Positions 1 to 30,908 of a DNA stretch of 64,000 nt are shown here, piece after piece. The notes beneath the pieces are model-generated. The model was not told where the DNA came from. It was given only the letters and a program-made list of their open reading frames with translations, and did no database searches. This DNA is from Candidatus Lloydbacteria bacterium RIFCSPHIGHO2_02_FULL_50_18 (GTDB lineage Bacteria > Patescibacteriota > Minisyncoccia > Phycocordibacterales > UBA6899): contig MHLM01000015.1 of assembly GCA_001821395.1 (NCBI GenBank), positions 2,293 through 66,292 of the forward strand. The letters are read 5' to 3'. Position 1 is the first letter of the stretch; each line of letters opens with the position of its first letter. The translations under genes and the position numbers were made by a program.

Positions 1-1400
1 TCGGACGAGCAAGAAATATCGCTCCAAACGCTTTTGCGAAACACATCAATGCCAGCCCTCCGGTAAATACGAGCGAAGAAGCGGCGAGCACGAATATCCA
101 TCTCAACGAATAATGGAAGCTTGTTATGCCCTGAAACAACGACTGATATGTTAACCACTCACTGAAAAATCCGTTCAACGGGGGCAGTGCGGAGATCGCC
201 ATTGAACCGATAAGGAAGAAGAGCGCAGTCGATGGCATATATTTTATCAGGCCTCCATATTCTTCCATGTTCTTGGTATGTACCTCATTGATCACCGATC
301 CGGCGCTCAAAAAGAGTAGCGACTTAAAGATCGCATGATTGATCGTATGAAAGAGGGCCGCAATAAAACTGAGCAATGCAAGTGAAGGGACTCCCAGAGT
401 ATAGAAGATCAGTGCGCTACCAAGCCCAAGCAAGATGATGCCGATATTTTCGATACTGTGATACGCTAGCAACCTCTTAATATCATGCTCAGTAAGTGCA
501 TAGAGCACTCCAAGTAAAGAAGAGACCGCACCGATGACCAACACTGTCTCACCCCACCACAATGGCACGGGCTGTAGTATGTCGAGGAATAATCTCATCA
601 TCATATAGATACCGGTCTTGATCATGACACCCGACATGAGCGCAGAAACGTGAGAAGGAGCAGCCGGATGCGCCGCAGGAAGCCAAATATGAAGCGGGAT
701 GATACCGGCCTTTATTCCGAAACCGATCAGCGCAAAAATAAAGATCGCATTTTTGACAGACTGAGGTACAAGCGCTATCCCCGATGCAATAGCTGAAAAG
801 TCAAAAGAACCGGTGTACTTATAGAGGAACAAGAAAGCCAAGATAATGAACGCCGTCCCGACATAGGTCATGACGAGATACAGTGAGCCCGCTTTGATAT
901 TTGCCGGATCGTTGCGATCATAGACAACGAGAAAGTAGGAGGCGATAGACATCAATTCCCATGCAATGAGAAAAAATAATGCATTTGCTGAAGATACGAC
1001 CAAAAACAAACTCAGGAAGAGGATGTTATAAAAAAACCCAAGCGTCCCTAGCTGATATTTCCCGTAGTAATGCGTAACGTAACCGAATGCATAGACAGAA
1101 CAAAAAACACCAATGAGCGAGATCGCAAATATAAAGAATGAAGAAAGTAGATCAACATGAAAAGAGAACGAGAGCAAGGAAAAAGGAGAACTCCCGATCA
1201 TGAAATCATACTCTTTACCCGCATAGATCGCAGCAGATGAAAAACATAACCCGAGAGCTGTGCCAAGTACCGCAAAAGAATTACTCCACCAATTTGTGAC
1301 TTTGTCATTTTTTTGCAAAAAAAGCGAGCCGATCGCGCCTGCTCCGAACAGCGCAAGCGCCGTAAGAAAAAATAGAGGAGAAAGTATTATTGTAAGCATA
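1..1400 (-). CDS. NuoL/M/N (HyfB/MrpD)-like proton-pumping antiporter subunit, truncated at the window edge (start codon at ~1400, extends left of position 1)
   Basis: Reverse-strand translation from ATG at 1398-1400 gives a continuous >460 aa multi-TM protein. It carries the NuoL/M/N signature WLPAAHPAAPSHVSALMSGVMIKTGIY (cf. [22 protein letters not shown]). Not in the ORF track because it runs off the window. Confidence 0.75.
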
Positions 1401-1997
1401 TTATTTTGCAGTTAGGGATCTCTTATCCACGACCTCCAGTATGTGCAGAAGCCCGAGCAAAATATCTTTGGGTGAGGGTGGGTCGCCGGGGATATGATAA
1501 TGAACCGGGATGACAGAATCCACGCCGTCCATGACTGCATATGAACCCCTGAAGATCCCTCCATCAAGCGCATCATCACCGATCGCTACCACGATCTTAG
1601 GTTCCGGGGTCGCTTCATAGGCGTCCTTGACCGCCGAAGCCATATTTCTTGTAACTGGTCCTGTGACAAAAAGCATATCGGCATGGCGAGGAGAAGCGAC
1701 AAAATGTATACCAAAACGTTCAACATCGTAAAAATTATTCGATAGCGCAACCAATTCCTGCTCGCAGGCATTGTCGGAACCGGCATCAACCTGCCTTATT
1801 GCGAGCGAACCATGAAAAAGGCGCTTAATATTATCGCGTACTTTTTCTCCCACCTCCGCATACGCTGCATTCGCAATATCCCCAGAGTCTATGCTAATGA
1901 CATTATTTGGTGTCTTAATTATTTTGAGAAAAATATTCAACATATTTACCATTATGAAACGTCTAATACACTCGGACGAAATCGCTATCCCCCTCAA
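1401..1997 (-). CDS. NuoB / [NiFe]-hydrogenase group-4 small-subunit homolog lacking Fe-S cysteine ligands (Ehr-like)
   Basis: Aligns to NuoB/HycG core: ERFGIHFVASPRHADMLFVTGPVTRNMASAVKDAYEATPEPKIVVAIGDDALDGGIF...VIPVHYHIPGDPPSPKDIL. The canonical cluster ligands are replaced: CC -> AC, GSC -> GDD, GC -> GV, PGCPP -> PGDPP. The true start may be an internal Met. Confidence 0.8.
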   Translation of the reverse strand: MRGIAISSECIRRFIMVNMLNIFLKIIKTPNNVISIDSGDIANAAYAEVGEKVRDNIKRLFHGSLAIRQVDAGSDNACEQELVALSNNFYDVERFGIHFVASPRHADMLFVTGPVTRNMASAVKDAYEATPEPKIVVAIGDDALDGGIFRGSYAVMDGVDSVIPVHYHIPGDPPSPKDILLGLLHILEVVDKRSLTAK

Positions 1998-2240
1998 CTA
2001 TTTTTTCAGAAAAATCCACACAAATTGAACCCCATACCACAGATACCATGCTAACCATAAAACGAAATATGGTTGCAACTGGTGCAACTAATAGAATAAA
2101 TATATGCAATTTTTAAAATTAAGTCAAAAAATGGACATACTGAAGCCCTTTTCTGCCATTCTCGCTTCAAGAATGAACGGAGTGTCATTAGGAAAAATTG
2201 GTCGCGCAAAGCTCTTCGATTCCTGTTGGAGGAAATTCCA

Positions 2241-2480: not shown

Positions 2481-2532
2481 ATCCCGACCATATGAAAAAA
2501 CACCTGATGGCGTTTTTTCATATGGTCGGGAT
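2481..2532 (-). terminator. Extended palindrome / intrinsic terminator overlapping the tRNA-Pro 3' end
   Basis: ATCCCGACCATATG-AAAAAA-[CACCTGATGGCG]-TTTTTT-CATATGGTCGGGAT. The outer arms are an inverted copy of the tRNA 3' terminus. The inner stem is flanked by A6/T6 tracts, so it could terminate in either direction. Confidence 0.6.
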
Positions 2533-2596
2533 GCCGGGAATCGAACCCGGTTCTTGCGAACCCGAATCGCAAATACTACCGGTGTACTACATCCCG
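2523..2596 (-). tRNA. tRNA-Pro (anticodon CGG), CCA encoded
   Basis: Manual fold: acceptor CGGGATG/CATCCCG, D-stem GTAC/GTAT, anticodon stem TGCGA/TCGCA with loop TTCGGGT (G37), T-arm CCGGG-TTCGATT-CCCGG, discriminator A, then CCA. Confidence 0.85.
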
Positions 2597-3008: not shown

Positions 3009-4790
3009 TTACCAACTTCCGCCACCACCGCCACCACCACCGCCTCCCGACATACCTCCCCCGCCCGAACCTCCGCCCGCACTTGCGAACGCAGTGCCCG
3101 CACTCGTACTAAAGGCCCCCATCGAAGCTGCCAGCGCGGCCGCATTAAACCGTACCCCGCCGCCCTGGTACCAACGTTCGGCATCTTTCTTCGTGTACAT
3201 GTCCACAAACTTTTCCGCCCAGGCTTTCTCGACACCAAAGATCATCGCGTATGGAAGAAATCGTTCAAACGTTTTTGGCTCTTTTTCCGGTGCGTTTGCA
3301 AAATCGATGCGATCCTTCTCCGCAACGGAGAGATATTCCTTAAACCCCTCGATCTCTTCACGCGCAATAGCACCCTGCTGTGTCCGTTTGCCCATAAAGT
3401 ATCCGAAGACCGTGACGATGACACCTGAAACAATGAGTGCCAAATTCCCGAATGAAAGCAGTGAGCCGATGACTATCAATGCGATACCTGTCAGCACGTA
3501 ATTCCTCGTCGTGACCTGCGGATCCGTTTCAAAATAACCCAAAGAGGTGAGATCGACAGCGATGAGCTTTGATAGTTCACTCCTCACATCGACAAACTTG
3601 TGCGCAAGGGTTGATACGAGCACCGTTTCCCCGCTCGCACGAAGCGTATCGTAAAGCATTTTTTCCGGTGCAGTAAGCAGGCTCGTATCAACGCCGGGGA
3701 GAAAATGCAGTCGATGATCTTCGTTTGTGACCAACAGTCTCTTTTTCTTCGTACGCTCGATAGTGAGCAATCCGCGCACGGCGAAGTCGATGATCGCTGC
3801 TGATATTGTTTTGGGCTTGAGATCCGAGTGATACAAATATCCGAGCTCAAGTGTCGTCAAATGCTTCGGTATATCGTATTGCGCGATGATCGTCCCCCGG
3901 CCTTTTGGATCGCGACCCTTTTTCCACCAGATATTCCACATGACCACGAATACGACAAGCGGTATGAGTGCACTCATGCCAAGAAAATCATTTTTCCACC
4001 AGCGATAGAATCCCACACTGTCTGCGAGTTTTTTCACCGATGACTTTGGAGCAATGAGGAATATGCCCTTCGGTATCCCTACGGCAACGGTCATTCCCTC
4101 ATTTGAGTGCAGCGAGCCATCATAGGTAAAACGTACGGAATTGATGATTCCCGTTCCCTCTTGCGGAGTGGACGATGCGGTGCACAATGCAGTGCTTCCC
4201 AGGGGACCAACATAACACGCACTTGAAATACTATTTTCGTTGAGCGGAAGCGGCAGGATCACGTCAGTACGTACTGCGGCGATAGTTTGCTTCCATTCAT
4301 TCCCCGTGACATTCCAATAGAACTCATCCTTGCCTGCCAACCCCTGATTGATCGCACCCCAGACCGTGTAATGAATGACGTAGAGCTGTCTTCCCGTGAC
4401 CTCAACATCAGGGTCGCCGATCTTCAACTCCATATAATTCCCTCCGCCCGAATACTTCGACTCCCGGAGGTTTCCCTTGCCGTCCGTGACCATGATACTT
4501 GAGATCTCTATGCTGCGTGCTGCACGCTCTCCCGGAACGGTGAAAGTGAGCGGAATGCGACGATAGATCCCATGTCGCACTTCACCATCCGGATTAAAAC
4601 TATAGACGATCTCTTCTTGCACGACAGCACTACCGTTCGGTTTCAACTCGATATGCGCAGTGAATGCGTCGATAGAGTCATCCGCGAACGCGAAAAAAGG
4701 CGTCAAAAAAAAGAAAGCAGCACAGACCAGTCGAAGAAACCGATGATCAGTCATTGTCACCGAGCTTCTTTTTAACGTCCTCGAATTCAT
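3009..4790 (-). CDS. DUF2207-family membrane protein with C-terminal poly-Gly tail
   Basis: Signal/anchor at the N-terminus, a large extracytoplasmic domain, TM helices mid-protein and a C-terminal GGGSGGGGMSGGGGGGGGGG tail: the architecture typical of DUF2207 proteins. Confidence 0.7.
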   Translation of the reverse strand: MNSRTLKRSSVTMTDHRFLRLVCAAFFFLTPFFAFADDSIDAFTAHIELKPNGSAVVQEEIVYSFNPDGEVRHGIYRRIPLTFTVPGERAARSIEISSIMVTDGKGNLRESKYSGGGNYMELKIGDPDVEVTGRQLYVIHYTVWGAINQGLAGKDEFYWNVTGNEWKQTIAAVRTDVILPLPLNENSISSACYVGPLGSTALCTASSTPQEGTGIINSVRFTYDGSLHSNEGMTVAVGIPKGIFLIAPKSSVKKLADSVGFYRWWKNDFLGMSALIPLVVFVVMWNIWWKKGRDPKGRGTIIAQYDIPKHLTTLELGYLYHSDLKPKTISAAIIDFAVRGLLTIERTKKKRLLVTNEDHRLHFLPGVDTSLLTAPEKMLYDTLRASGETVLVSTLAHKFVDVRSELSKLIAVDLTSLGYFETDPQVTTRNYVLTGIALIVIGSLLSFGNLALIVSGVIVTVFGYFMGKRTQQGAIAREEIEGFKEYLSVAEKDRIDFANAPEKEPKTFERFLPYAMIFGVEKAWAEKFVDMYTKKDAERWYQGGGVRFNAAALAASMGAFSTSAGTAFASAGGGSGGGGMSGGGGGGGGGGSW

Positions 4791-11357: not shown

Positions 11358-12752
11358 TTAATGTATTGAAAATTCCTCAGAGTGCACACAGCTCACCGGG
11401 ACCTGCCACTTTGCAAACTGAGACTTGATCGATCTCATCATGGGGGGTGGTCCGCACACAAAGATCTCCTTTCCTAGTAGATTTTTACTTTCGGCCGCAA
11501 TGGCATCTGCCGACAAATACCCCTTCTCTACTCCATACCAAGGGATAAGGCGGAAATTCGGATTCGTTGCCGCAATCGAGCACAACTCTTCGTTCCATGC
11601 CGCACCCTCAGATGACATCGCCGAATAATACATATCTACCTTATAGTCGCTCTCTTTGGTCAGACTTCGTGCCATAGAGAGAAACGGTGTGACGCCGATC
11701 CCTCCGGCGATCCATATCTGCTCCTTGCAGGGATAATAGACATATGATGTCCTCCCGAAAGGACCCTCGATAACCGCGCGAGACCCGGGCATTATCCGAT
11801 TCAATTGTTTCGTATAATCACCGAGGGCCTTGACTCCGATCGAAAGTTTATCGGTTCCCGGTGACGAAGTGAGCGAGAACGGATGCACTTCCTCGAGTCC
11901 CCTGGTATCGGGAAATCCGATGAACACAAATTGACCGGGCGTGTAGCTCATCGGTTTTCCGTCCTTGGCATGCATGACGATCTCGACGATGCTCGGATTT
12001 ATCTGTTTCACTTCATCAACCACATATTCGCGTCTTGGGATCAACAATGCGCCAAGGATCGTACGATACATGATACTTGCAAAGCCGATGGCCGCGAGAA
12101 ACCACATGTAGTACTGAAGTACGGGAGATCGCGTCACATCGCTAGAGACGAAGAGCGCATGAAGCGCGCCGAAGAAAAAAGCGAAACCGAGAAATTTGTG
12201 CGTGAGCTTCCAAGTATGATATGGCAGCTTGATAAAAAAAGTAAGCACGAGAAACAGTATCATGAGGAGAAGTGCAACAACACCGAATAGATATGAGCAT
12301 TCAGGGTTAACGAGACTGAACTGCGCAAAACAGAACGGATTTGCAATATAAAGCACATAACTGCTCTTCAATCCGATCGCCCCAAAACCAAGATACTGCG
12401 CGACCAACAATATCGGATGAACAAGCAGAAGAATGAACGAGACTCCGCCCAAAATATGATGCACGATATACACCCGATTCATGCCGCCAAAGAGACTCTC
12501 GAGGAAGCGGAGGCGCGCACCAAGCACGAGGTTAAGCGCAAACATCGCCATGCCGACCAGACCGAGCGCTTGCCCGAGCGCCTGCATCGTGAGGGAAAAA
12601 CTAAATGCTCCATGGCTGATAAAACGCTGATGGAGAGGAAGTGGTGTAAAAAACCAAAAGACGAGCGGAAGGAAGGACAGAAATAGCATTAGTGGCCACC
12701 CAAGTTTTGAGACACGAGGAAATTTCATTGCTTCATTGTAACACCTCACCAA
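11358..12752 (-). CDS. Ferric-reductase/NOX-family flavocytochrome (ferric reductase TM domain + FAD + NAD(P)H binding)
   Basis: Six-TM N-terminus with paired His, FAD motif HPFSLTSSP, NAD(P)H motif GGIGVTPFLSM, C-terminal CGPPPM. Confidence 0.8.
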   Translation of the reverse strand: MVRCYNEAMKFPRVSKLGWPLMLFLSFLPLVFWFFTPLPLHQRFISHGAFSFSLTMQALGQALGLVGMAMFALNLVLGARLRFLESLFGGMNRVYIVHHILGGVSFILLLVHPILLVAQYLGFGAIGLKSSYVLYIANPFCFAQFSLVNPECSYLFGVVALLLMILFLVLTFFIKLPYHTWKLTHKFLGFAFFFGALHALFVSSDVTRSPVLQYYMWFLAAIGFASIMYRTILGALLIPRREYVVDEVKQINPSIVEIVMHAKDGKPMSYTPGQFVFIGFPDTRGLEEVHPFSLTSSPGTDKLSIGVKALGDYTKQLNRIMPGSRAVIEGPFGRTSYVYYPCKEQIWIAGGIGVTPFLSMARSLTKESDYKVDMYYSAMSSEGAAWNEELCSIAATNPNFRLIPWYGVEKGYLSADAIAAESKNLLGKEIFVCGPPPMMRSIKSQFAKWQVPVSCVHSEEFSIH

Positions 12753-15177: not shown

Positions 15178-17535
15178 CTATTTTACCCCCGCGTACAAAC
15201 TTCTCTGGAAATCAAAAAAGGTCGAGCGAATAGCGTCTACATCCCCGAGAATATCCACCGCATCAGCAATAGCGTGATATTTCAAATTGAGCAATTGCGG
15301 GAGCTTTTCTTCGTCGAGCTCCTCGACTCCGCGCTCGACATACTTAGCAAGTACGAACTCAAGAAAATCTTTTTGATCATCATTCAATCCGCCCAAGATT
15401 GCACTCTTGGCACCCAAAACACGATCGACGCGCGAGATTGGCTGTACGCAAAACGAGACATAAGCGAGCACGTCAAACAAATCACTGTTTTCCGCATCGA
15501 TCATCTTTTGAAGTATCTCAAGCTCATCCTTCCCATACCCCGCCTCAGCAAGCTTATCGAGAAATACTTTTCTCGTACTTGGATTGGCCCAAATTTCACG
15601 AAGCTCAACTTCATTCTTATAAAATGAAGGGAGTGCACCGAACATGTTGTTCATAAATTCCTCTACCGAGATCGGCTTCCCATCTGCGCTCCAAAATGAG
15701 GTGGAGATCATATGCTTTATTTCTCGATCCTTTCCATCCCGCAACTTTATTTTAAGCTTTTGTATGGGTGGAGGCACATCGCACACGCACGGCTTCTGTC
15801 CGCACACAACGCATGGCGCGGTCGGAGGCTTCACACACACACAGGGCGTCATACCACATGCTGCACAGGGTTGTTTCGGCGCTGGCTCCACTATCGGCTC
15901 ATCAATGGGCTCTCCGTCCCACTCAGGGTCAGCGAAGTGATGATACGCATCCACAAAGTCATAGATAGTGAAATACTCCTTTCCGTCAAAGAGCCGAGTT
16001 CCTCGTCCAACGATCTGCTTAAACTCAATCATGGAGTTTACGGGGCGCATCAGTACAATATTGCGAATGTTTCGCGCATCGACTCCCGTCGAGAGCTTTT
16101 GTGAGGTAGTGAGGATGGTGGGGATACTTTTTTCATTATCCTGGAATTCTTTCAAATACTGATCCCCGCGAGCACCGTCATTGGCCGTCACGCGCACACA
16201 ATAATTTGGCTCAGTGCTCTCTTTCATCTGATTCACCAAGTCACGCACTGCGAGTGCATGGTCTTGTGTTGCGCAAAAGATAATAGTCTTTTCGTTTTGA
16301 TTTATCTCCTCAAGTATGACGCGTACACGCTTCGCCTCACGCTCCTTGATCTCGATGATCTTATTAAAGTCCGCCTCTTCGTAGATTTTTCCTTCCTCCA
16401 CTTCCCCCTCGATGATCTGGTCGTCCGAAGTGTACACATAATCATCCATCGTCGTCTTGATACGCTTCACCTTAAATGGCGTCAGAAATCCGTCATTCAC
16501 TCCGGTTTTGAGCGAGTAAGTGTATACGGGCTTTCCGAAATAGTTGTAGGTGTCCACGTTGTCTTGCCTGCGTGGCGTCGCGGTGAGCCCAAGGTGTACC
16601 GCAGGCGCGAAGTGCTCGAGGATCGCTCGCCAATTGCTCTCATCGTTCGCACCCCCACGATGACACTCGTCAATAATGATCAGATCAAAAAAGTCCGAGG
16701 GATAGTCCCCGAAATATGGCGAACCATTTTGCCCGCTCATAAAAGTCTGGAATATGGTGAAAAAGATGCTCCCATTTGTGGGCACAGCACCCTTCTTCCG
16801 TATATCAAGTGGATTAATGCGCACAAGTGCATCCTCATGGAAAGCCGAGAATGAATTAAATGCCTGATTTGCTAAAATATTTCTGTCGGCAAGAAAGAGG
16901 ATTCTCGGGCGCCTCCCTCCATCTCGCGCCAAGTTCCATCGTGACTGAAAAAGCTTCCACGCGATCTGAAATGCAATAAAAGTTTTCCCCGTGCCTGTCG
17001 CAAGCGTTAGAAGCGCCCGTTGCTTGTTTTCCGCAATTGCATCGAGTGTATTGTTCACGGCAATTTCTTGATAGTATCGCGCACTCTTTGTGCCGTTCAT
17101 ATCCTCAAACGGGACAGCGGCAAATTTCTCCTTCCATGCATTTTGGTCAGAATAGACCATGTTCCATAATTCATCAGGAGTCGGGAAACGTTCCACATAT
17201 TTCTCCGCACCCGTCTCCATGCATATCTCGTATATTTCTTTGCCGTTAGTGGCATAGGTATATTTGATCTCAAGTTTCTCAGCATAAGCCTTCGCCTGTG
17301 CGACGCCCTCCGTCGCCGAGAGTCCCTCATGCTTTGCCTCCACAACCCCGATCTTCATGTTTTTATAAACCAAAATATAGTCAGCGATCTCAGGCTTCCC
17401 GCGTACTCCACCAGTCATAATGCGTCCGAGGGTTATGCGAAACTCCCGCAGGACCTTCGATCCCTCGATCTCGCCCCATCCGGCTTCTTTCAGCTTCGGA
17501 TCAACATATTCCGCTCGTGTTTCAGATTCATTCAT
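15178..17535 (-). CDS. hsdR: Type I restriction enzyme R subunit
   Basis: N-terminal PD-(D/E)XK (ADYILVY...VVEAKH), helicase motifs LATGTGKT / DECH, typical HsdR layout. The C-terminal third carries an unusual Cys-rich tandem motif. Confidence 0.9.
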   Translation of the reverse strand: MNESETRAEYVDPKLKEAGWGEIEGSKVLREFRITLGRIMTGGVRGKPEIADYILVYKNMKIGVVEAKHEGLSATEGVAQAKAYAEKLEIKYTYATNGKEIYEICMETGAEKYVERFPTPDELWNMVYSDQNAWKEKFAAVPFEDMNGTKSARYYQEIAVNNTLDAIAENKQRALLTLATGTGKTFIAFQIAWKLFQSRWNLARDGGRRPRILFLADRNILANQAFNSFSAFHEDALVRINPLDIRKKGAVPTNGSIFFTIFQTFMSGQNGSPYFGDYPSDFFDLIIIDECHRGGANDESNWRAILEHFAPAVHLGLTATPRRQDNVDTYNYFGKPVYTYSLKTGVNDGFLTPFKVKRIKTTMDDYVYTSDDQIIEGEVEEGKIYEEADFNKIIEIKEREAKRVRVILEEINQNEKTIIFCATQDHALAVRDLVNQMKESTEPNYCVRVTANDGARGDQYLKEFQDNEKSIPTILTTSQKLSTGVDARNIRNIVLMRPVNSMIEFKQIVGRGTRLFDGKEYFTIYDFVDAYHHFADPEWDGEPIDEPIVEPAPKQPCAACGMTPCVCVKPPTAPCVVCGQKPCVCDVPPPIQKLKIKLRDGKDREIKHMISTSFWSADGKPISVEEFMNNMFGALPSFYKNEVELREIWANPSTRKVFLDKLAEAGYGKDELEILQKMIDAENSDLFDVLAYVSFCVQPISRVDRVLGAKSAILGGLNDDQKDFLEFVLAKYVERGVEELDEEKLPQLLNLKYHAIADAVDILGDVDAIRSTFFDFQRSLYAGVK

Positions 17536-18185
17536 GATGATTGTTTCGCACCATACTGCTTAACTGCCACACCGTCATATCTTTCTTTGAGTCCCTCATA
17601 AATAAGACTCACGAGGGGCTTATAATCATCGGCATGATCGATTTGCGCAAGCGCCTGACGGTAGCGATTCTTATTTTCCTTTTCTACTTTTATTGATATA
17701 CCAATTAACCCGTAGCGCTCCAAAATCAAATTCGCAGCAAGACGAGCAGTGCGTCCGTTCCCATCCCGAAATGGATGAACGCAGGTGATAGAATAATGCA
17801 ACCATGCCGCCAGATGAATAACTCGCTCAACCGTCTGATGGACTTTCGCCATGCTTACATTTTTTCCTCTTATTATTCCCTCTGCTTTATCTAGCGCTTG
17901 TAATTTTTTCTGCAACTCGACCTCCCTTTCGTTCATGAGGTCATTTATTTTTGAGTGATGAGGGGGGACGTGACTTGAGTCTGTTATTTCAAGATTTTCC
18001 GTTCTATACTTTCCCGCAATATCAGGCCAGGCATCTTTGAATATTTCCCGATGAATTTCCTTGATCGTTTCAATCGAAATACCCTTGTGTGATCGTGCAA
18101 ATTTTCTTACAAAACGAGAAGCGCGGATCACTCCAATCGCTTCTCGTTTTTGTAACTCTTCTTCCGAGCGCGGACACTCTACCAT
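17532..18185 (-). CDS. Fic/Doc family protein (AMPylator-type toxin domain)
   Basis: Canonical Fic motif HPFRDGNGRTARL. Confidence 0.85.
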   Translation of the reverse strand: MVECPRSEEELQKREAIGVIRASRFVRKFARSHKGISIETIKEIHREIFKDAWPDIAGKYRTENLEITDSSHVPPHHSKINDLMNEREVELQKKLQALDKAEGIIRGKNVSMAKVHQTVERVIHLAAWLHYSITCVHPFRDGNGRTARLAANLILERYGLIGISIKVEKENKNRYRQALAQIDHADDYKPLVSLIYEGLKERYDGVAVKQYGAKQSS

Positions 18186-18193
18186 GGCAATGC

Positions 18194-18388
18194 TTACGCT
18201 ACTTTTAGCGCAAGTTTTTCAAATTCCCCGCGATCAAGCTTGCTTCCCTCAAGCGCACTCGAATAATAGGCATGCTCAATATCCCAACTTTTTTCAAGGG
18301 CGGATTTTTGTTTTGGCGTAAGCTGAGAAATCTGTCGTTCTGCAACTTTCTTACTCGCCATTAACTGTACGAGCCGTAGATTCTTCAT
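18194..18388 (-). CDS. FicA-like small protein carrying the Fic inhibitory motif (SxxxEG); separate antitoxin-like gene or frameshifted N-terminus of Fic
   Basis: 64 aa; ...IEHAYYSSALEGSKLD contains S-x-x-x-E-G. Its stop lies 8 nt upstream of the Fic ATG, in a different frame. Confidence 0.5.
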   Translation of the reverse strand: MKNLRLVQLMASKKVAERQISQLTPKQKSALEKSWDIEHAYYSSALEGSKLDRGEFEKLALKVA

Positions 18389-18480
18389 GGATATGACTAT
18401 ACCACTATTTGACTATTTTACAACTCCTCATGTTTCAGGGGTGACTCCTTGGCCTTGAAAGGTGTCTCCTCGGAAACTGC

Positions 18481-19686
18481 TCACAACTCCCCAGCAAAGG
18501 CCTTTTTCAACACTGATTTTTTAAGCTCCTCAATATCAGCAAGTTTTTGCCCGTAGATTCCTTCAAGTTTTTTTGTCTGCTCCGCAAGCGCATCGAGCTT
18601 TTTGACGATGGTTTTTTGCTCTGAGACAGATGGAAATGGAAACCGCTCATGCTCAAACGTTGCCATGTTGATATTGGCCTGCGCACTTCCTTTTCCTTTT
18701 GCCTGGAGTACTGCCTTAAATGATTGCAAAAGATACTCGACAAAATTAGTATCTGCAATTTTGGGATTAGCAACAAGTCCGATCACGCTATCAGGAAAAC
18801 ACGCATCGAAATTCAGAATTCCAGTTTCTGCGATATTCGCCGCAATCGTAATGCAGATAGTTCCTCTCGGCCACAGCTTGCTCTGCGCCAGTCCCGCCTC
18901 GCTATACGACTGTGAGTACTCCACAATAAAGTGTCCAGAATTTCGAATATCTCCCGTCTGAATAAAGGGGTACTTTCCGCCATAGAGTTTTTTGTCGTTT
19001 CTTGGGCGATGCTTAGATTTTCCTCTGCCGAATTGCAGGGAGACTTCTTCTAGCGTCTTTTTCTCCCATTTCGAATTTTCAAAAACCCCCTGCAAATACG
19101 ATTCAAAAAGTTCGCGGGAATTCTTCAAATTCTTCTCCGCATTCTCCTTCGCCTTCTCCACTCCCTCAAAAACCTCATCAAGAATTTTTACGATGCGCTT
19201 TTGCTCGATCGCAGAAGGAAAAGGTATCTCAACCTCTTTTAATTTTGTTCCAGAAAGTTCCTTAAAAGTTGTACCACTACCCAAACTATTCAAAAGTTCA
19301 ACTGAATCTTTCAAAAAATAATAGAGAAATTTTGTATCAAGATTTTTATTCGGTATTAATCCCTTACACCCCTGATTTGTTGAAATTTCTTTTGTGTTTA
19401 TCGCCAAGTGACCAATCGGAGCACGGGTAGACAAAATAATCGAGTTGGGTGGAATGATTTTTGCTGACGACCTTTCTAATCCAGCCTTTGAAATTTTTCG
19501 TTCTGTTTCCTCAACGTATATTTTCCTAAGTCTCCCCATGTCTTTGGGTGTGATCCACAAAATATTTCCATCCCAGTACCTCAAAACGCCCGTTTTAGGA
19601 GTTCCTCCGTTTACAATCTCGCAAACCTCCCCAAGTTTTTTTATTTGCCAGTTAGTTTTCATAGTGAGAAATAATTTGCTTTCCAT
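18481..19686 (-). CDS. hsdS: Type I restriction-modification specificity subunit
   Basis: Two target-recognition-domain halves with conserved HsdS N-terminal and central repeats (EVCEIVNGGTPKTG...; ...VSEQKTIVKKLDAL). Confidence 0.85.
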   Translation of the reverse strand: MESKLFLTMKTNWQIKKLGEVCEIVNGGTPKTGVLRYWDGNILWITPKDMGRLRKIYVEETERKISKAGLERSSAKIIPPNSIILSTRAPIGHLAINTKEISTNQGCKGLIPNKNLDTKFLYYFLKDSVELLNSLGSGTTFKELSGTKLKEVEIPFPSAIEQKRIVKILDEVFEGVEKAKENAEKNLKNSRELFESYLQGVFENSKWEKKTLEEVSLQFGRGKSKHRPRNDKKLYGGKYPFIQTGDIRNSGHFIVEYSQSYSEAGLAQSKLWPRGTICITIAANIAETGILNFDACFPDSVIGLVANPKIADTNFVEYLLQSFKAVLQAKGKGSAQANINMATFEHERFPFPSVSEQKTIVKKLDALAEQTKKLEGIYGQKLADIEELKKSVLKKAFAGEL

Positions 19687-20821
19687 TCTGTATCAATTGG
19701 TCGTAAGTGAGAATGTCTATATCATGTAAACTAGAGTTTAAAAAATGAAGAGCTTTTTTCTCATCCTCAGTAAAGGCATCTGACCGACCGAGAATGAGCT
19801 GGACTCTTGGTCTTAGTATTCGAACAGAGTGCTGAATCGACAAAGTTTTTTTATAGTCTTCGATTCTTTGTAAATAAATTAAGGACTGACCAATTGCTTC
19901 CGAGAAAGGGCTCGTAGGGAAATGGCAACGATGCGAAGTATCATATCTAAACAGCGGGCTGCCGACACTTGGCCTCTTAACTTCAATGAGGCTGATAAAT
20001 CCATCGGGCGTTTCGAGTACGATGTCTGCCTCAGAGTTATCTTCTCCAATCTTCCTGAATGTGTGCTTTTTGTAGTACTCGACTCCAAAAACCCACAAAT
20101 TAGCCCCAATCCATTTATGAAACACACCCTCTGGTTGATTTGCGTGATATTTCTTTAGTGCACCATTTCCTTTTATTGCCTCAAGGAAATTCACGTCAGA
20201 TTCGATGCTTAAAAGGTATTCTAAATTAGCAATAGCCTCTTTGTGTTCTTTTTGTTTTATTGCTGCGCTCAAACTCTCGACGTCAAGGGCATCAATATTC
20301 TCAATAAACTTCTGAAATAAACTATTTCTTTCAGCGGTGCCCAACTTATTAAAAAGCTGAAACAGCTGATCAGATGTTAATGCTTGCGACCCATGCAATA
20401 ACTGTGAAAATGCATTCTTTCGCTCCACAAGTTCACTTACGTTTTGATCAGTAAATTTTAAATTTTCCTTAGAAGTTAAGTCCAGTAAATCTAATGATTC
20501 AAGAAACTTAATAAAGCGAGTAAGTGCTCCTCCATGAAAACTGAAAGATTGATTATGTGGTATGCCAGTATCTTTTGAAAATCTTTGAATGCGCAATGAA
20601 AACCCAGTGGTGTCTTGATTATAAATAGCGGTTATTTCTTGCACTGCGCTTTCGCGTATGACCTCAAAAACTTTCTTTTCTTTTTGATCGTTATAAAAAT
20701 CTTTAAAATCTTTTAGCTCAAATACTTTTGAAATGTATCTGATGTTCCCATCTTTCCCAATCGCCCTACTCACATAAGTAAGTGCGGGGTCTTTTTTGAT
20801 CGCATACTCTCCATTGCTCAT
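19652..20821 (-). CDS. Shedu-like (DUF4263-type) PD-(D/E)XK nuclease embedded between hsdM and hsdS
   Basis: C-terminal nuclease core LWVFGVEYYKK...EADIVLETPDGFISLIEVKRPS (D...E-V-K). Size and layout resemble SduA. It overlaps hsdM by 4 nt and hsdS by ~11-35 nt, so it is operonic. Confidence 0.55.
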   Translation of the reverse strand: MSNGEYAIKKDPALTYVSRAIGKDGNIRYISKVFELKDFKDFYNDQKEKKVFEVIRESAVQEITAIYNQDTTGFSLRIQRFSKDTGIPHNQSFSFHGGALTRFIKFLESLDLLDLTSKENLKFTDQNVSELVERKNAFSQLLHGSQALTSDQLFQLFNKLGTAERNSLFQKFIENIDALDVESLSAAIKQKEHKEAIANLEYLLSIESDVNFLEAIKGNGALKKYHANQPEGVFHKWIGANLWVFGVEYYKKHTFRKIGEDNSEADIVLETPDGFISLIEVKRPSVGSPLFRYDTSHRCHFPTSPFSEAIGQSLIYLQRIEDYKKTLSIQHSVRILRPRVQLILGRSDAFTEDEKKALHFLNSSLHDIDILTYDQLIQNGKQIISHYEN

Positions 20822-22263
20822 AACAAGTTTTTCAATATCTGAGCACTTTCTTTATCCAATTTCTCCATTTCCTTCAAAATCTCCTTCGGGGTGCGCAGCG
20901 CTACCTCACCTCCCTTGTTTGGATTCTTTGCCGATAGGTCGAAGGTCTTCTGGTCGACGTCTTTTATGTCTATGCTCCATGAATTTTCAGAATCACCATT
21001 CGTCTCTTGGAGTTTTATAAAATCAGCAAGGTCGGCTTCGTTGAGTGCATTGGTCTTGCCGAGGTTGCGGTCGAGGTTGAGCTGATAGAACCAGACTTTT
21101 TTCGTTGGTGCACCCTTCTCAAAAAAGAGTATGACCGTTTTCACCCCTGCACCAGTGAATGTGCCACCTGGCAGGTCGAGCACGGTGTGGAGATTGCAAC
21201 TTTCAAGCAGCATTTTGCGAAGCGACACCGAAGCATTGTCGGTGTTGGAAAGAAAGGTGTTTTTGATGACCACACCCGCTTTTCCTCCGGCTTTCAGCAT
21301 TTTGATGAAATGCTGGAGAAAAAGAAATGCCGTCTCTCCCGTTTTGATAGGAAAATTCTGCTGTACCTCAGGTCTCTCTGAGCCTCCAAATGGCGGATTC
21401 GCAAGCACGATCTCATAGCGGTCTTTCTCCTGAATATCCGCAAGGTTTTCGGCAAGTGTGTTGGTGTGAATGATGTTCGGAGCCTCGATGCCATGGAGAA
21501 TCATGTTCATGATGCCAATGATGTAGGCGAGCGATTTCTTCTCCTTGCCGTAAAATGTCTTCTTCTGAAGTGTCTGCATGTCGCTTGTCGAAAGCTTCTT
21601 GCTCTCCTTCAAGTATTCAAACGCTTCCACGAGGAATCCCGCCGAGCCCACAGCCCCATCATAGACTTTATCGCCGATTTTTGGAGCGACCACCTTCACG
21701 ATGGTCTTGATGAGTGGGCGCGGGGTGTAGTACTCGCCACCATTGCGCCCTGCGTTGCCCATGTTCTTTATCTTGCCCTCGTAAAGGTGTGAAAGCTCGT
21801 GCTTTTCGCTCTGCGAGCGAAAGTGCATTCCATCCACGAGGTTCAGCACCTCGCGGAGGTTGTACCCACTTTGTATCTTGTTTTTGATCTCGCTAAAAAT
21901 TTCTCCGATCTTGTACTCGATCGTGTCGGGACTCACTGCATCCGCCTTGAATTTCTTGAAATACGGAAAAAGCTCGCGCTCGACGAAATCCTTAAGGTCA
22001 TCACCCGACAGTGCTTTGCTGTGGTCAATCTTCTTATCTCCTGTCTTGGGCACTGCCCACACTTCCCAGCGAAACTTCGGCGAGATGATATATTCGTATT
22101 TTTTACCTGCGAGCTTCGCCTCGGTCTCCTTATCCTTTTCAAGATCATCAAGATACTTGAGAAAGAGCACCCACGAAGTCTGCTCGATATAATCCAGCTC
22201 ACTCGACGCCCCCGCATCCTTACGCAATATGTCATCAATATTTTTAAAGTGTTGTTCAAACAT
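20818..22263 (-). CDS. hsdM: Type I restriction-modification DNA methyltransferase subunit
   Basis: N6-adenine MTase motifs including LANPPFGGSE and an HsdM N-terminal domain. The ORF-track N-extension to 22314 overlaps the tRNA. The real start is MFEQHF at 22263, 7 nt after the tRNA 3' end. Confidence 0.9.
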   Translation of the reverse strand: MFEQHFKNIDDILRKDAGASSELDYIEQTSWVLFLKYLDDLEKDKETEAKLAGKKYEYIISPKFRWEVWAVPKTGDKKIDHSKALSGDDLKDFVERELFPYFKKFKADAVSPDTIEYKIGEIFSEIKNKIQSGYNLREVLNLVDGMHFRSQSEKHELSHLYEGKIKNMGNAGRNGGEYYTPRPLIKTIVKVVAPKIGDKVYDGAVGSAGFLVEAFEYLKESKKLSTSDMQTLQKKTFYGKEKKSLAYIIGIMNMILHGIEAPNIIHTNTLAENLADIQEKDRYEIVLANPPFGGSERPEVQQNFPIKTGETAFLFLQHFIKMLKAGGKAGVVIKNTFLSNTDNASVSLRKMLLESCNLHTVLDLPGGTFTGAGVKTVILFFEKGAPTKKVWFYQLNLDRNLGKTNALNEADLADFIKLQETNGDSENSWSIDIKDVDQKTFDLSAKNPNKGGEVALRTPKEILKEMEKLDKESAQILKNLL

Positions 22264-22269
22264 TTTTTT

Positions 22270-22345
22270 TGGTGGACCATGGGAGAATCGAACTCCCCAC
22301 CTCTTCCATGCCATGGAAGCGCTCTACCAAATGAGCTAATGGCCC
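22270..22345 (-). tRNA. tRNA-Ala (anticodon GGC), G3:U70, CCA encoded
   Basis: Manual fold: acceptor GGGCCAT/ATGGTCC with G3:U70, anticodon stem CTTCC/GGAAG with loop ATGGCAT, T-arm GGGAG-TTCGATT-CTCCC, then ACCA. Confidence 0.85.
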
Positions 22346-22640
22346 GTAGAAAGATGATAACTTACAAATGGGTTTTCTTCAATGAAGACGGGGGGGGTCG
22401 AGTCGTGAAGGGAGTCGAAGCTTATTCGAGATCGTCATCGCAAGCTTTGTGGAGATGGCAAGTCGTGTAGTGCGTTGCCGGAGGGCAACACTGCTACGAA
22501 AAAGCCAACCGGGTGTCTGGCTTTGCGGACTTGGCTTACAGCTTCAGTACGCCTTTTCGATTTATTCAGAGCGAAGCTCTTCATAAATAACGAAAAGCCC
22601 TTCGACTCCCCGCCGCAAGTGAAGCAGTTCACTTGCTTGA

Positions 22641-22694
22641 GTCCACAGGTACAAAAAAATTACGATTTCTCGTAATTTTTTTGTACCTGTGGAC
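22641..22694 (-). terminator. Perfect 54-nt palindrome / intrinsic terminator overlapping the tRNA-Ala(CGC) 3' end
   Basis: GTCCACAGGTAC-AAAAAAA-TTACGA-ttct-TCGTAA-TTTTTTT-GTACCTGTGGAC. The 3' arm includes the first nucleotides of the tRNA 3' terminus. Confidence 0.6.
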
Positions 22695-22760
22695 TCACGG
22701 GGAGTCGAACCCCGGACTCGGCAATGCGAATGCCGTGTAATACCACTTTACTATGAGCCC
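22690..22760 (-). tRNA. tRNA-Ala (anticodon CGC), G3:U70, no CCA encoded
   Basis: Manual fold: acceptor GGGCTCA/TGAGTCC (G3:U70), anticodon stem CGGCA/TGCCG with loop TTCGCAT, T-arm CGGGG-TTCGACT-CCCCG, discriminator A. Confidence 0.8.
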
Positions 22761-22805
22761 AGTAGGCGAATAGTAGCGAATTTATCCGTGGGGTGCAAAT
22801 TGTTG

Positions 22806-22849
22806 GACCGTACAGGAATCTCGGCTACCGCCGCGGGTGATATTCAATT
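22806..22849. repeat. tRNA-Ala(TGC) 3'-end fragment (tggaccgtacagga) fused to the conserved 34-nt element; attR-like scar
   Basis: 14 nt identical to the acceptor/T-stem of tRNA-Ala(TGC) at 23197-23210. It is followed by aatctcggctaccgccgcgggtgatattcaat, identical to 2247-2280. Confidence 0.6.
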
Positions 22850-23141
22850 TCGTACAGGAATTTCGACGCCTACTGCGTCAGTACCCAGTTTCAATTTGAA
22901 TACAGGACTCTTCCTCTACGAGGACAGTATACCTTTCACCACAGAGAGTACTTCTTGTTTTCTAGCTCACTTCGTTCGTAAGTAAACAATGTCGTCCGTT
23001 TACTGAGGATAAGAATCCTGCCGTACAGGAATCTCTCCCCTTACAGGGGCAGTGTCCAGTTTCGATTTACTCAAAATAGGAATTTCTCGTAAATATCGAA
23101 ACAGGCTTCGAGTCCTTACGCAAGCAATGCAGATTGCTTGC

Positions 23142-23206
23142 TACGGTCCACACCATATAAGAAAAAACTGCCTTACGGCAGTTTTTACTTTATGGTGTGG
23201 ACCGTA
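23142..23206 (-). terminator. Extended hairpin / terminator overlapping the tRNA-Ala(TGC) 3' end
   Basis: ctacggtccacaccata-aagaaaaaa-CTGCC-ttac-GGCAG-ttttta-ctttatggtgtggaccgta: GC stem flanked by A/T tracts. The outer arms are an inverted copy of the tRNA acceptor 3' strand. Confidence 0.55.
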
Positions 23207-23270
23207 CAGGACTCGAACCTGCCACCCCCGCATTGCAAATGCGGTGCTCTACCAGATGAGCTAACGGCCC
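23198..23270 (-). tRNA. tRNA-Ala (anticodon TGC), G3:U70
   Basis: Manual fold: acceptor GGGCCGT/ACGGTCC (G3:U70), anticodon stem CCGCA/TGCGG with loop TTTGCAA, T-arm GCAGG-TTCGAGT-CCTGT. Confidence 0.85.
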
Positions 23271-28550: not shown

Positions 28551-29408
28551 TCATTGCTTATGCGGAGTCACAACCATTTTTTTGACCTCCGCGACGATCT
28601 CATCAAGAGTGTAATTCGCCTTCACCATGAACTGGTCCGCTCCCCCCTTTAGCGCCTTTTCAATATCTTCGCGCTGTCCGAAATTTGAAAGCATGGATAC
28701 TTTTGTTTGTGCCAAAGCGGGATTCGCGCGAACACGACTCAGCACTTCAAAGCCATCGATACCCGGCAAAAGAATGTCGAGCAGTATAATGTCCGGTATT
28801 TCCTTCTCAGCAAATTCGACGCCCTGCTCACCGTCAACGGCAGCCACGACGTTAAAACCTTCCTTTGCTATCTTCTGAAGCGCAAGATCACGCAAGAATT
28901 TATCATCCTCAATGACCAATACCTTGATGGAAGATGCTTCGCGCGGTTCTGCACTTGCAGTCGCCGATGTTGCCGCACCCACCAGAGATGCCGACACGGA
29001 TGGCACTGCGACTGCGCCCGCTACAGGAAGGACTTTTGCGATCTTTTGCAGTATCTGCGTAGTATCATTTTTGGATTTTACAAAATAATCCTTTACCCCA
29101 AGCTTAATGGCGACTGCGATCTCCACCAGATCGCCGCTCTGCGAAGCGGCAATGACCGGCACGAGTGCGATGCGTTCGTCTGCCTGTGCGCGGATCGCCT
29201 CAAGCATGGCGATGTTGTTTTCACCGTTCATTCCGACATCGACGATCAGTAATTCCGGAATGGCGACCGAAAAAACATCCCTCAATGACGGTTCATCATG
29301 AGCCAATAGTACGCGATATCCAGCTTCCTTAAGTACTCCAGAAAGCCTTGTTGTAAATTCCTCGTCAATGGAAATAATGAGGATTGTTCTTGTTTGTTCG
29401 TCGGTCAT
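28551..29408 (-). CDS. Response regulator with two tandem receiver (REC) domains and no output domain
   Basis: Two CheY-like domains (LLIVDVGMNG...; DIILLDILLPGIDGFEVL...K) joined by an Ala/Ser-rich linker. Confidence 0.75.
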   Translation of the reverse strand: MTDEQTRTILIISIDEEFTTRLSGVLKEAGYRVLLAHDEPSLRDVFSVAIPELLIVDVGMNGENNIAMLEAIRAQADERIALVPVIAASQSGDLVEIAVAIKLGVKDYFVKSKNDTTQILQKIAKVLPVAGAVAVPSVSASLVGAATSATASAEPREASSIKVLVIEDDKFLRDLALQKIAKEGFNVVAAVDGEQGVEFAEKEIPDIILLDILLPGIDGFEVLSRVRANPALAQTKVSMLSNFGQREDIEKALKGGADQFMVKANYTLDEIVAEVKKMVVTPHKQ

Positions 29409-29443
29409 AATGTAGGTGATAATATTATAGCACGTGCCGGGAA

Positions 29444-30877: not shown

Positions 30878-30908
30878 GATACTGCTCTAATATTACGCGA
30901 TAATGCAC

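Follow-up and report, generated by a model that had tools for sequence, protein, structure and literature searches.

A conserved Ehr-type small subunit without a four-cysteine [4Fe-4S] site in Patescibacteria, from a complex that most likely translocates ions independently of redox chemistry

The locus lies at the left end of a 64,000-nucleotide stretch of contig MHLM01000015.1 from Candidatus Lloydbacteria bacterium RIFCSPHIGHO2_02_FULL_50_18 (hereafter, the window), which contains the first gene of an operon and 466 codons of the second (Table 1). The first gene, ehrS-like, starts at the ATG at 1952 and encodes a small subunit of 183 residues, whose numbering is followed here. A mechanical TTG-to-stop reading frame is longer (1401..1997, reverse strand), and the 183-residue form is the one present in public gene calls, with an identical protein on 18 public contigs; an exact look-up with a 180-residue start (MLNIF...) gave no match, the 183-residue form being the one recorded. 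The second gene, ehrA-like, starts 1 nt past the ehrS stop and leaves the window at its left edge. Its product matches Proton_antipo_M (2.8e-59) and the hydrogenase-4 subunit B model (6e-159), in agreement with a preliminary description of this DNA that had placed a NuoL-like antiporter subunit beside the small subunit.

Table 1. Features of the locus, in window coordinates.
Feature	Position	Strand	Basis and remarks
ehrA-like gene, NuoL/HyfB/MrpA-type antiporter-like subunit, 5' part (466 codons)	1..1399	(-)	683 aa in full (contig L011); Proton_antipo_M
ehrS-like gene, NuoB / [NiFe]-hydrogenase small-subunit homologue	1401..1952	(-)	183 aa; ORF list, Pfam, alignments, predicted fold
D157 codon, fourth cluster cysteine position (PGCPP -> PGDPP)	1482..1484	(-)	Sequence read and alignments; codon read 1484-1482
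D126-D127 codons; D127 at third cluster cysteine position (GAC or GSC in homologues)	1572..1577	(-)	Sequence read and alignments; D127 codon 1574-1572
D60-N61-A62-C63 codons, where the hydrogenase CxxC / NuoB CC ligands sit	1764..1775	(-)	Sequence read and alignments; D60 codon 1775-1773, C63 codon 1766-1764
Sigma-70-like promoter match (TTGACT, 17 nt spacer, TATATT; 10/12 positions)	2099..2127	(-)	Consensus match only; 5' of the operon's first gene
tRNA-Pro	2523-2596	(-)	Gene upstream of the small-subunit gene

The contig itself (L011, 66.4 kb) continues through the NuoL/HyfB-like, NuoH-like and HyfE-like genes and stops within the fifth gene, 2.35 kb beyond the window's left edge, the operon of the source genome being read only to its fourth gene. 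The complete set of six genes is found in at least 30 orthologous loci, in the order small subunit, NuoL/HyfB-like, NuoH-like, HyfE-like, NuoM/N-like and NuoC-NuoD fusion, the small subunits of the orthologous operons being 68-81% identical. Because the gene upstream is a tRNA-Pro, the operon probably starts at the sigma-70-like match. In the window and in L011 alike, the reading frames are unbroken and show translational coupling. In the L001 assembly, the NuoL-like gene is broken into two reading frames, and the same protein set is found unsplit in L002. An F1Fo ATP synthase in synteny with the operon was present only in these two loci and was therefore dismissed as a functional clue of general value, and the c subunit of the ATP synthase adjoining the L002 operon is of the H+ type, without the Na+-binding Gln/Ser/Thr pattern that would be a sign of a sodium cycle. 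Also rejected were conserved small flanking reading frames, since the 66-68-residue frames of different loci are unrelated.

The small subunit matches the Pfam family PF01058 (Oxidored_q6) at 1.8e-25 and 89.6 bits, for a gathering cut-off of 27, which makes it a member of the superfamily, and in PDB sequence searches it matches MbhJ (6cfw_J, E = 6.8e-30) and HycG (7z0s_G, E = 2e-29). The NCBIfam NuoB models PRK06411 and TIGR01957 score below their curated cut-offs (114.2 versus 116 and 106 versus 142.7). The AF2 model has a pTM of 0.74, with low confidence for residues 59-75 (the first ligand loop), and Foldseek comparisons relate the predicted fold to MbhJ (6cfw_J; TMt 0.83, rmsd 2.8 Å) and to 7q5y_F (TMt 0.87). 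Over PSST/NuoB chains the TM values range from 0.62 to 0.87, corresponding to the flavodoxin-like NuoB/PSST/MbhJ fold. The gene is real and intact, and its product is a clear NuoB/hydrogenase small-subunit homologue, with homology far past chance; the preliminary description had also called it such a homologue.

The former [4Fe-4S] ligand positions were assigned from residue-by-residue alignments to MbhJ, HycG and NDUFS7. The motifs on which the preliminary description was based, GSDNACEQEL (58-67), AIGDDALDGG (123-132) and MDGVDSVIPVHYHIPGDPP (141-159), are all present. Its statement that all four ligands are replaced, three of them by Asp, holds for the Asp residues, with D60, D127 and D157 at the first, third and fourth cysteine positions and an invariant D126 just before D127. 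It fails for the remaining ligand, C63, which is retained and conserved at the second position and matches the second Cys of both the hydrogenase CxxC and the NuoB CC pair, the tandem pair of NuoB falling on A62-C63. The error belongs to the observation and leaves the Ehr interpretation drawn from it supported. C63 is the sole cysteine in the whole small subunit, and therefore a four-Cys site is impossible and the canonical cluster cannot be bound, as had been concluded. That the cysteines might be present but shifted, a case raised against this reading, is not borne out, and misalignment of the cysteine positions was rejected on the basis of conservation and of the three independent alignments.

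These positions are strongly conserved among 121 close family members, where D60, D126 and D127 are Asp in every sequence and C63 is Cys in 119. At position 157, 76 of them have D and 44 have N, and the nearest relative of 14 of the 44 N-type sequences is of the D type, which indicates repeated D/N switching. A single Cys per protein is usual in the family, and two members are devoid of Cys. The near-invariance of D60, C63, D126 and D127 in the main clade is a pattern also expected of a specific metal site. Among sub-clades of the same operon type, the residues at the ligand positions vary (DCDDD, TCDDD, TEDGD, SEDGD, NEDGD and DADAD), the last four being without Cys at these positions. Over the five pocket positions, the 96 four-Cys representatives have 0-1 acidic residues and 16 of the 17 cluster-less ones have 2-4, and the swap from Cys to Asp or Glu recurs across several separate lineages.

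The residues of the NiFe site were read from orthologous loci, the contig of the source genome ending before the large-subunit gene. The preliminary description had proposed inspecting the large subunit for NiFe CxxC motifs, and in all 120 orthologous NuoC-NuoD-fusion large subunits the four cysteine positions are occupied by S, S, S and G, as they are in every compared locus that encodes a large subunit. Compared with NiFe hydrogenases, RxCGxC is changed to KISGDS and DPCxxC to NMSYTG. The equivalents of the quinone-site His38 and Tyr87 are Ile and Gly, again in 120/120. The large subunit is well conserved, with 60-66% identity, Peregrini- and Gracilibacteria included, and 142 of 524 columns conserved at 98% or more. 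At the former NiFe site, EKISGDSS and DFPLINKSFNxSYxGNDL are nearly invariant; that four-Cys Ehr (L009) has them too suggests that the site retains a conserved function. No NuoI/HycF-type 2x[4Fe-4S] gene was found in or near the small-subunit-first operons. A search for reading frames with CxxCxxCxxxC returned none in the whole 64-kb window and, in these operons or up to 1.5 kb from them, only one 71-residue out-of-frame reading frame inside the L006 operon. As far as its genes can be read (in the source genome, to the fourth), the subtype retains no redox-cofactor binding site, because the large subunit is without NiFe cysteines, the small subunit is without a four-Cys site and there is no ferredoxin-type subunit.

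On the membrane side, alignments of the antiporter-like subunit to HycC and MbhH reveal that it retains the TM5 Glu (WELMS), the TM7 Lys (GIKAG), the TM8 Lys (VMIKTG) and the TM12 Lys (HAIFKS). The NuoH-like subunit matches HycD at 6e-40, and a PDB sequence search with the 215-residue HyfE-like subunit gave no match. The Mrp-related content of the operons is restricted to MrpA/D-like subunits and a NuoK/MrpC-like (HyfE-like) subunit, with no homologues of MrpB, MrpE, MrpF or MrpG. Without MrpE, MrpF and MrpG in the operon, there is therefore no identified pathway for antiport of a second ion.

A comparison of gene order over 98 loci demonstrated that the small-subunit-first arrangement goes with cluster loss in 56/56 loci, and the small-subunit-last (CD-B) arrangement with four cysteines in 30/31. 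A scan of genome contigs with a single-sequence query recovered 6 loci; the scan of metagenomes with the alignment as query was far richer, with at least 591 related stretches. The range of small-subunit identity given above spans Magasanik-, Moran-, Kaiser-, Nomura-, Staskawicz- and Uhrbacteria and Paceibacterota, with a mean column identity of 77% across CPR classes, and four-Cys Ehr relatives, at 53-60% identity, share the set of subunits and in most loci also have no separate NuoI-type gene. From the loci recovered, the subtype can be assigned to Patescibacteria/CPR, with some Chloroflexota having it as well. In a rough neighbor-joining tree of the small subunits (126 columns), the query sits among Ehr-type ('GDC') relatives, and the topology suggests cluster loss in one main clade together with several independent losses. 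A single origin of cluster loss is disfavoured by this tree, which with 126 columns is not decisive.

We consider it somewhat better than an even chance that this small subunit belongs to a cofactor-less Ehr subtype that works as an electron-free ion translocator, with an acidic pocket substituting for the charge and volume of the cluster. As judged from its genes, the complex is of the Ehr type. In this subtype the small-subunit gene has shifted to the head of the six-gene operon. The complex would still be functional, without electron transfer, given the strong constraint on every subunit and the retention of charged transmembrane residues in the antiporter-like and NuoH-like ones; most likely, it would be a redox-independent ion translocator. 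The preliminary description had likewise pointed to a hydrogenase-related, ion-translocating complex of the Ehr type that has lost redox cofactors, which finds support in the orthologous operons, the S/S/S/G large subunits and passages of PMC7304191. By analogy with Mrp antiporters, its role would most likely be that of a secondary proton or cation translocator linked to the proton-motive force, in fermentative cells without an electron-transport chain. Since a passage of PMC7894505 states that the role of Ehr has 'never been investigated', both ion translocation and the direction it takes are inferences. The acidic residues, typically 2-4 Asp/Glu at five positions, would stand in, by negative charge and by volume, for the lost [Fe4S4(Cys)4] in a pocket at the interface of the small, large and NuoH-like subunits, and probably form no specific new metal site.

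A bolder version of this proposal, which we hold to be rather unlikely, is that the carboxylates imitate the reduced cluster electrostatically and permanently, their net charge being about -2 to -3. The 2-4 convergent carboxylates would then lock the interface of the small, large and NuoH-like subunits in one state, and a redox-gated pump would have become a translocator that is constitutively active, or gated by a ligand or an ion. If so, the membrane arm of the complex I superfamily, together with its Q-module scaffold, could run without any electron transfer, and what the coupling machinery reads would be the charge at the N2 position, as opposed to redox chemistry itself.

An alternative that we regard as unlikely makes the Asp/Cys pocket (D60, C63, D126 and D127, perhaps also D157) a binding site for a non-redox cation, for example Mg2+, Ca2+, Zn2+, Mn2+ or Na+, with a structural or a catalytic role. 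If catalytic, the site would couple the antiporter-like membrane arm to ion sensing or to chemistry other than redox; precedents are cyanobacterial NDH-1MS/CupA and DabAB, where NuoL-like modules are coupled to the hydration of CO2. The conservation of the first four of these residues in the main clade (121/121 for each Asp, 119/121 for C63), the recurrence of the Cys-to-acid swap in separate lineages and the nearly invariant motifs at the former NiFe site are all in keeping with it, and a redox-free ion pump requires another driving reaction or gradient. However, ligand identities differ among sub-clades that share the same operon, position 157 switches between D and N, with 14/44 N-type sequences nearest to D-type ones, and neither the orthologous operons nor their flanks encode an additional catalytic subunit. 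Moreover, the first ligand loop (59-75) is predicted with low confidence. Binding of a metal through carboxylates, offered as an option in the preliminary description, is thus weakened by the differing replacement residues and the D/N flip.

Much less probable is that the complex is still a redox enzyme, with a non-canonical Fe-S or mononuclear iron centre on C63 and carboxylates that takes electrons directly from a soluble partner. Single Asp ligands of Fe-S clusters are found in Pyrococcus furiosus ferredoxin and in DPOR, so that Asp is able to ligate such clusters, one Cys is kept at a true ligand position (119/121), and the four-Cys Ehr relatives at 53-60% identity have the same subunits and mostly also are without a separate NuoI-type gene. 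On the other hand, we know of no Fe-S cluster with three carboxylate ligands. The TEDGD, SEDGD, NEDGD and DADAD sub-clades are without Cys at the ligand positions and two main-clade members are without Cys throughout. There is also no acceptor site, the NiFe cysteines and the quinone-site His/Tyr equivalents being missing from 120/120 large subunits, and no ferredoxin-like domain, while some four-Cys relatives have a fused one. Finally, a decaying, functionless relic of a hydrogenase or complex I operon, which the loss of all cofactor ligands and the split NuoL-like gene of L001 could suggest and which the preliminary description had named as a refuting case, is effectively refuted by the intact, coupled reading frames, the unsplit set in L002, the identical protein on 18 contigs, the at least 591 related metagenome stretches and the conservation of both the small subunit (68-81% identity across CPR classes, mean column identity 77%) and the large subunit (142/524 columns at 98% or more).

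The CPR Ehr clade and its loss of the NiFe cysteines were already published in 2020, according to passages of PMC7304191. In the literature searched, no account was found of a lost Fe-S site in the small subunits of Ehr, CPR or Chloroflexi, although Marreiros et al. 2013 might mention it, and the small-subunit cluster loss, the recurrent acidic replacements and the link to gene order are absent from that literature. Complex I, group 4 hydrogenases and Ehr represent one common coupling machine, in which the drive of ion translocation by the redox site is debated, and a variant conserved across a lineage, with the scaffold and the charged transmembrane residues and no redox site, offers a natural test of whether that scaffold can operate free of electrons. 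It also bears on the membrane energetics and ion homeostasis of Patescibacteria, which have small genomes and are thought to be fermentative and without electron-transport chains, these chains being largely missing from CPR (PMC7507113, PMC9166423). 'NADH dehydrogenase subunits' are routinely counted as partial complex I in CPR genomes (for example in PMC9166423); genes of the CPR Ehr type should not be taken for evidence of respiration or H2 metabolism. For annotation, the small-subunit-first order and the motif GS[DTSN]N[AS][CEAV]EQE may serve as markers of the subtype.

With complex I (NuoB/PSST with cluster N2), the small subunit shares its fold and the motifs SPRHAD and PG-x-PP; however, the CPR complex is without the tandem-Cys N2 site, NuoI and NuoEFG, and the equivalents of the quinone ligands His38 and Tyr87 are replaced as described above. 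The best matches among solved structures, for all subunits tested, are the group 4 hydrogenases, E. coli FHL (Hyc/Hyf, 7z0s) and Pyrococcus furiosus MBH (6cfw), the matched pairs being HycG/MbhJ, HycC/MbhH, HycD/MbhM and HycE/MbhL. As in HycE, the CPR large subunit is a NuoC-NuoD fusion, and as in group 4 hydrogenases, a peripheral cap sits on a NuoH-like subunit together with antiporter-like subunits. In contrast to these enzymes, the CPR complex is without the NiFe site, the proximal [4Fe-4S] cluster, the HycF/MbhN ferredoxin subunit, HycB and FdhF, and, compared with MBH, without the Mrp-type small subunits. Mrp antiporters (7qru, 6z16, 7d3u) are redox-independent and have homologous MrpA/MrpD subunits with the same pattern of TM5 Glu and TM7/TM8/TM12 Lys, but they have no NuoB-, NuoD- or NuoH-like peripheral module and do have MrpB, E, F and G, which are missing from the CPR complex. 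The CPR complex is then outside the Mrp family, and Mrp is a functional analogy only.

The closest correspondence is with the Ehr (Ech/energy-converting hydrogenase-related) complexes, a concept attributed to Coppi 2005 and Marreiros et al. 2013 in passages of PMC7894505, PMC6349859 and PMC4758237. Classical Ehr, for example EhrA-D, L and S of Geobacter sulfurreducens (GSU0739-45), has the same six kinds of subunit as the CPR complex, namely NuoL-like, NuoH-like, HyfE-like, a second antiporter-like, large and small subunits, without NuoEFG. In both, the large subunit is without NiFe cysteines, its signatures SGDS and NKSFNxSYSGxDL are shared (L009) and the N-module is absent. Jaffe et al. 2020 (BMC Biol 18:69, PMC7304191) describe, in the passages available, the CPR large subunits as a monophyletic Ehr subclade without metal-binding cysteines that 'likely cannot interact with H2'. 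From these passages, that clade is the same complex as the one studied here; they concern the large subunit only and do not mention Fe-S loss in the small subunit, the absence of a ferredoxin-type subunit, the gene-order signature or Chloroflexota. The differences from classical Ehr lie in the small subunit, which there retains the four [4Fe-4S] cysteines, whereas in the CPR subtype the ligand set is lost. Some of the four-Cys small subunits also have a fused 2x[4Fe-4S] domain (L071, L085) that the CPR subtype is without, and the small-subunit gene follows the large-subunit gene in classical Ehr (30/31 loci) but comes first in the present subtype (56/56). The cluster-less, small-subunit-first state is thus a variant of Ehr, and the membership of the complex in Ehr stands.

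The product of the ehrS-like gene is, judged by sequence, a clear homologue of the NuoB/hydrogenase small subunit, as the preliminary description had proposed. It scores 89.6 bits against Pfam PF01058 (cut-off 27), and among solved structures its nearest relatives are the Pyrococcus membrane-bound hydrogenase subunit MbhJ (6.8e-30) and the E. coli formate hydrogenlyase subunit HycG (2e-29), with the complex I PSST/NuoB subunits ranking behind both. The AlphaFold model (pTM 0.74, mean pLDDT 72, the loop of residues 59-75 being of low confidence) compares with MbhJ at a TM score of 0.83 and an rmsd of 2.8 Å. The three motifs quoted previously are found in the protein, and HMMER and MAFFT alignments place D60, C63, D127 and D157 at the four cluster-ligand positions. 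Thus, three of the [4Fe-4S] ligands are replaced by Asp, as stated, but the replacement of all four does not hold, since C63 is kept and aligns with the second Cys both of CxxC in hydrogenases and of the CC pair in NuoB. Because C63 is the sole cysteine of the small subunit, a canonical cluster is impossible, in agreement with the earlier claim. Among 121 close relatives, positions 60, 126 and 127 are always Asp (121/121 each), position 63 is Cys in 119, and position 157 is Asp in 76 and Asn in 44, its state switching many times between nearest relatives. The identical 183-aa product is on record for 18 public contigs, orthologues being mostly 178-180 aa long. A tRNA-Pro gene lies upstream of the sigma-70-like match, and a single base separates the ehrS-like stop codon from the ATG of the NuoL-like gene, whose earlier assignment is borne out by its domain matches.

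Coordinates of the features in the window and at related loci
Feature	Locus	Coordinates	Strand	Remarks
ehrS-like ORF, mechanical TTG-to-stop frame	window	1401..1997	-	ORF list
ehrS-like start, public gene calls	window	ATG at 1952	-	183-aa product
Sigma-70-like match	window	2127..2099	-	TTGACT-17 nt-TATATT, consensus match; upstream of ehrS-like gene
NuoL/HyfB-type antiporter-like gene	window	1399..1, runs off window edge	-	Proton_antipo_M 2.8e-59; NCBIfam hydrogenase-4 subunit B 6e-159
DUF2207 membrane protein	window	3009..4790	-	long glycine run at end (GGGSGGGGMSGGGGGGGGGGSW)
NOX / ferric-reductase type flavocytochrome	window	11358..12752	-	464-aa membrane protein; Ferric_reduct, FAD_binding_8, NAD_binding_1
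Low-GC island (0.415-0.436; flanks ~0.50)	window	15178..22314	-	type I restriction-modification system (hsdR, hsdS, hsdM), Fic/DOC and Shedu SduA_C-like genes inserted between its genes
Three consecutive tRNA-Ala genes	window	22270..23270	-	anticodons GGC, CGC, UGC; adjoin the low-GC defence island
Compact signalling module	window	28551..32087	-	consecutive FIST-domain sensor protein, histidine kinase, double-receiver response regulator
Fused small subunit, classical Ehr	L071	8602..9507		N-terminal domain, two CxxCxxCxxxC motifs
Fused small subunit, classical Ehr	L085	952..1872		N-terminal domain, two CxxCxxCxxxC motifs
F1Fo ATP synthase operon, Magasanikbacteria	L001/L002	2534..9816		complete; H+-type c subunit
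Region compared between two assemblies	L001	10545..12595		small subunit identical to L002
Region compared between two assemblies	L002	10545..12596		small subunit identical to L001

ENA contig k141_2069488 (66.4 kb; L011), to which the window belongs, extends 2.35 kb further left. There, where the preliminary description had pointed, the operon continues with the full NuoL-like gene (683 aa), NuoH-like (309 aa) and HyfE-like (215 aa) genes and a fifth gene, cut off after 37 codons by the end of the contig. The complete operon is present in orthologous loci of Magasanik-, Moran-, Nomura- and Kaiserbacteria and further Patescibacteria (CPR) bins, whose small subunits are 68-81% identical to that of the window; it comprises the small subunit (~180 aa), NuoL/HyfB-like (683), NuoH-like (~310), HyfE-like (215) and NuoM/N-like (~481) proteins and a NuoC-NuoD fusion (~520). 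A few cluster-less operons (L005, L016, L041) carry one extra antiporter-like (Proton_antipo_M) gene after the NuoCD-like gene, so the number of pumping modules varies. The NuoL-like gene is intact in L002 and split in L001 (415-aa and 268-aa ORFs), probably by an assembly or sequencing frameshift. At both loci the ATP synthase operon lies directly upstream of the Ehr operon, an adjacency not seen at other loci; downstream follow a CBS-domain gene and a transporter of the ArsB/CitMHS type. In the window, the NOX / ferric-reductase type gene, located ~9 kb away on the upstream side of the Ehr operon, encodes a redox protein; this is unexpected in a CPR genome, as electron-transport chains are thought to be missing from it.

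In the large subunit of the orthologous loci, KISGDSSFSH stands for RVCGICGFAH of HycE and NMSYTG for DPCYSC. The NiFe cysteines, which had been suggested for inspection, are S, S, S and G in 120/120 large-subunit homologues, and Ile and Gly, again in 120/120, occupy the positions of His38 and Tyr87, the quinone ligands of complex I. Despite this ligand loss, EKISGDSS and DFPLINKSFNxSYxGNDL are nearly invariant, being common also to the four-Cys Ehr of a high-GC MAG (L009). The membrane subunits look functional as predicted proteins: in the NuoL-like subunit the TM5 Glu (WELMS) and the TM7 (GIKAG), TM8 (MIKTG) and TM12 (HAIFKS) Lys are retained, the same as in MbhH, HycC and NuoL, and the NuoH-like subunit can be aligned with HycD from end to end (5.8e-40). 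No CxxCxxCxxxC ORF was found across the whole 64-kb window, nor inside any operon opening with the ehrS-like gene (small-subunit-first) or in the 1.5 kb on either side of it, except for one 71-aa ORF, out of frame inside the L006 operon. In contrast, the small subunit of some four-Cys Ehr (L071, L085) carries a fused 2x[4Fe-4S] domain, which is a built-in ferredoxin-like electron entry and is absent from the cluster-less subtype. The operon set, the NiFe-less large subunits and the missing ferredoxin-type ORF support the earlier interpretation of an Ehr-type, cofactor-losing complex. Judged by sequence, the ehrS-like protein is its small subunit, and the complex has no site left for NiFe, proximal [4Fe-4S] or ferredoxin-type clusters.

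Searching the small subunit against 1.84 billion representative proteins gave 164 matches at E <= 1e-30. Of the top 150, most retain the four cysteines, and ~25 do not, having at the positions equivalent to 60, 63, 126, 127 and 157 the residues SEDGD, NEDGD, DADAD, DVDES, DADDN, SADES, ECDED, DVTDD or DCTDN. Two of these cluster-less matches are labelled Chloroflexota and Dehalococcoidia, and the operon of the Chloroflexota locus L017 is likewise small-subunit-first. A rough NJ tree points to one main cluster-less clade and to several independent losses beside four-Cys sisters. In a comparison of 98 usable loci among the related DNA stretches listed, the cluster is lost in 56/56 loci with small-subunit-first order, and four cysteines are present in 30/31 with large-then-small order, L019 being the exception. 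Both groups are Ehr, because the large subunits lack the NiFe cysteines in each. The small-subunit-first strings among these loci are DCDDD (24), TCDDD (10), TEDGD (9), DCDDN (3), SEDGD (3), NEDGD (2) and others. Acidic residues at the five positions number 0-1 in four-Cys proteins and 2-4 in 16/17 cluster-less representatives.

The complex would work without electron transfer, and its most economical role would be that of a proton/cation translocator tied to the proton-motive force, similar to an Mrp antiporter. The hosts ferment and are largely without respiratory chains (PMC7507113, PMC9166423). At the subunit interface, the acidic residues would most likely stand in for the lost cluster in both charge and volume, and most likely do not form a defined new metal site. 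The principal alternative is a cation-binding or catalytic site at D60, C63, D126 and D127, for which the near-invariance of these residues within the main clade speaks; however, the identity of the acidic residues is not conserved between sub-clades and Asn is accepted at 157, which argues for charge and volume compensation. A residual non-canonical Fe-S centre in this one-cysteine protein is unlikely. The decaying pseudogene, named as an alternative in the preliminary description, is excluded by the strong purifying selection that the alignments indicate for the small subunit across CPR.

By definition, Ehr are relatives of group 4 hydrogenases that have no NiFe ligands, and according to the same sources their function was never put to the test (PMC6349859; PMC7894505; bioRxiv 10.1101/765248). 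Jaffe et al. 2020 (PMC7304191) describe a monophyletic CPR Ehr clade with large subunits lacking metal-binding cysteines. No description of the small-subunit cluster loss, the missing ferredoxin-type subunit, the gene-order signature or the Chloroflexota members was found in the literature searched, Marreiros et al. 2013 being outside its reach. The complex could offer a natural setting for testing redox-independent coupling, but its mechanism is inferred and part of the story is already published. Since the CPR clade is published and the remaining features were not found in this literature, the complex is a variant within the already known Ehr and not a separate new system, being by its sequences a cofactor-free, lineage-wide member of the complex I superfamily.
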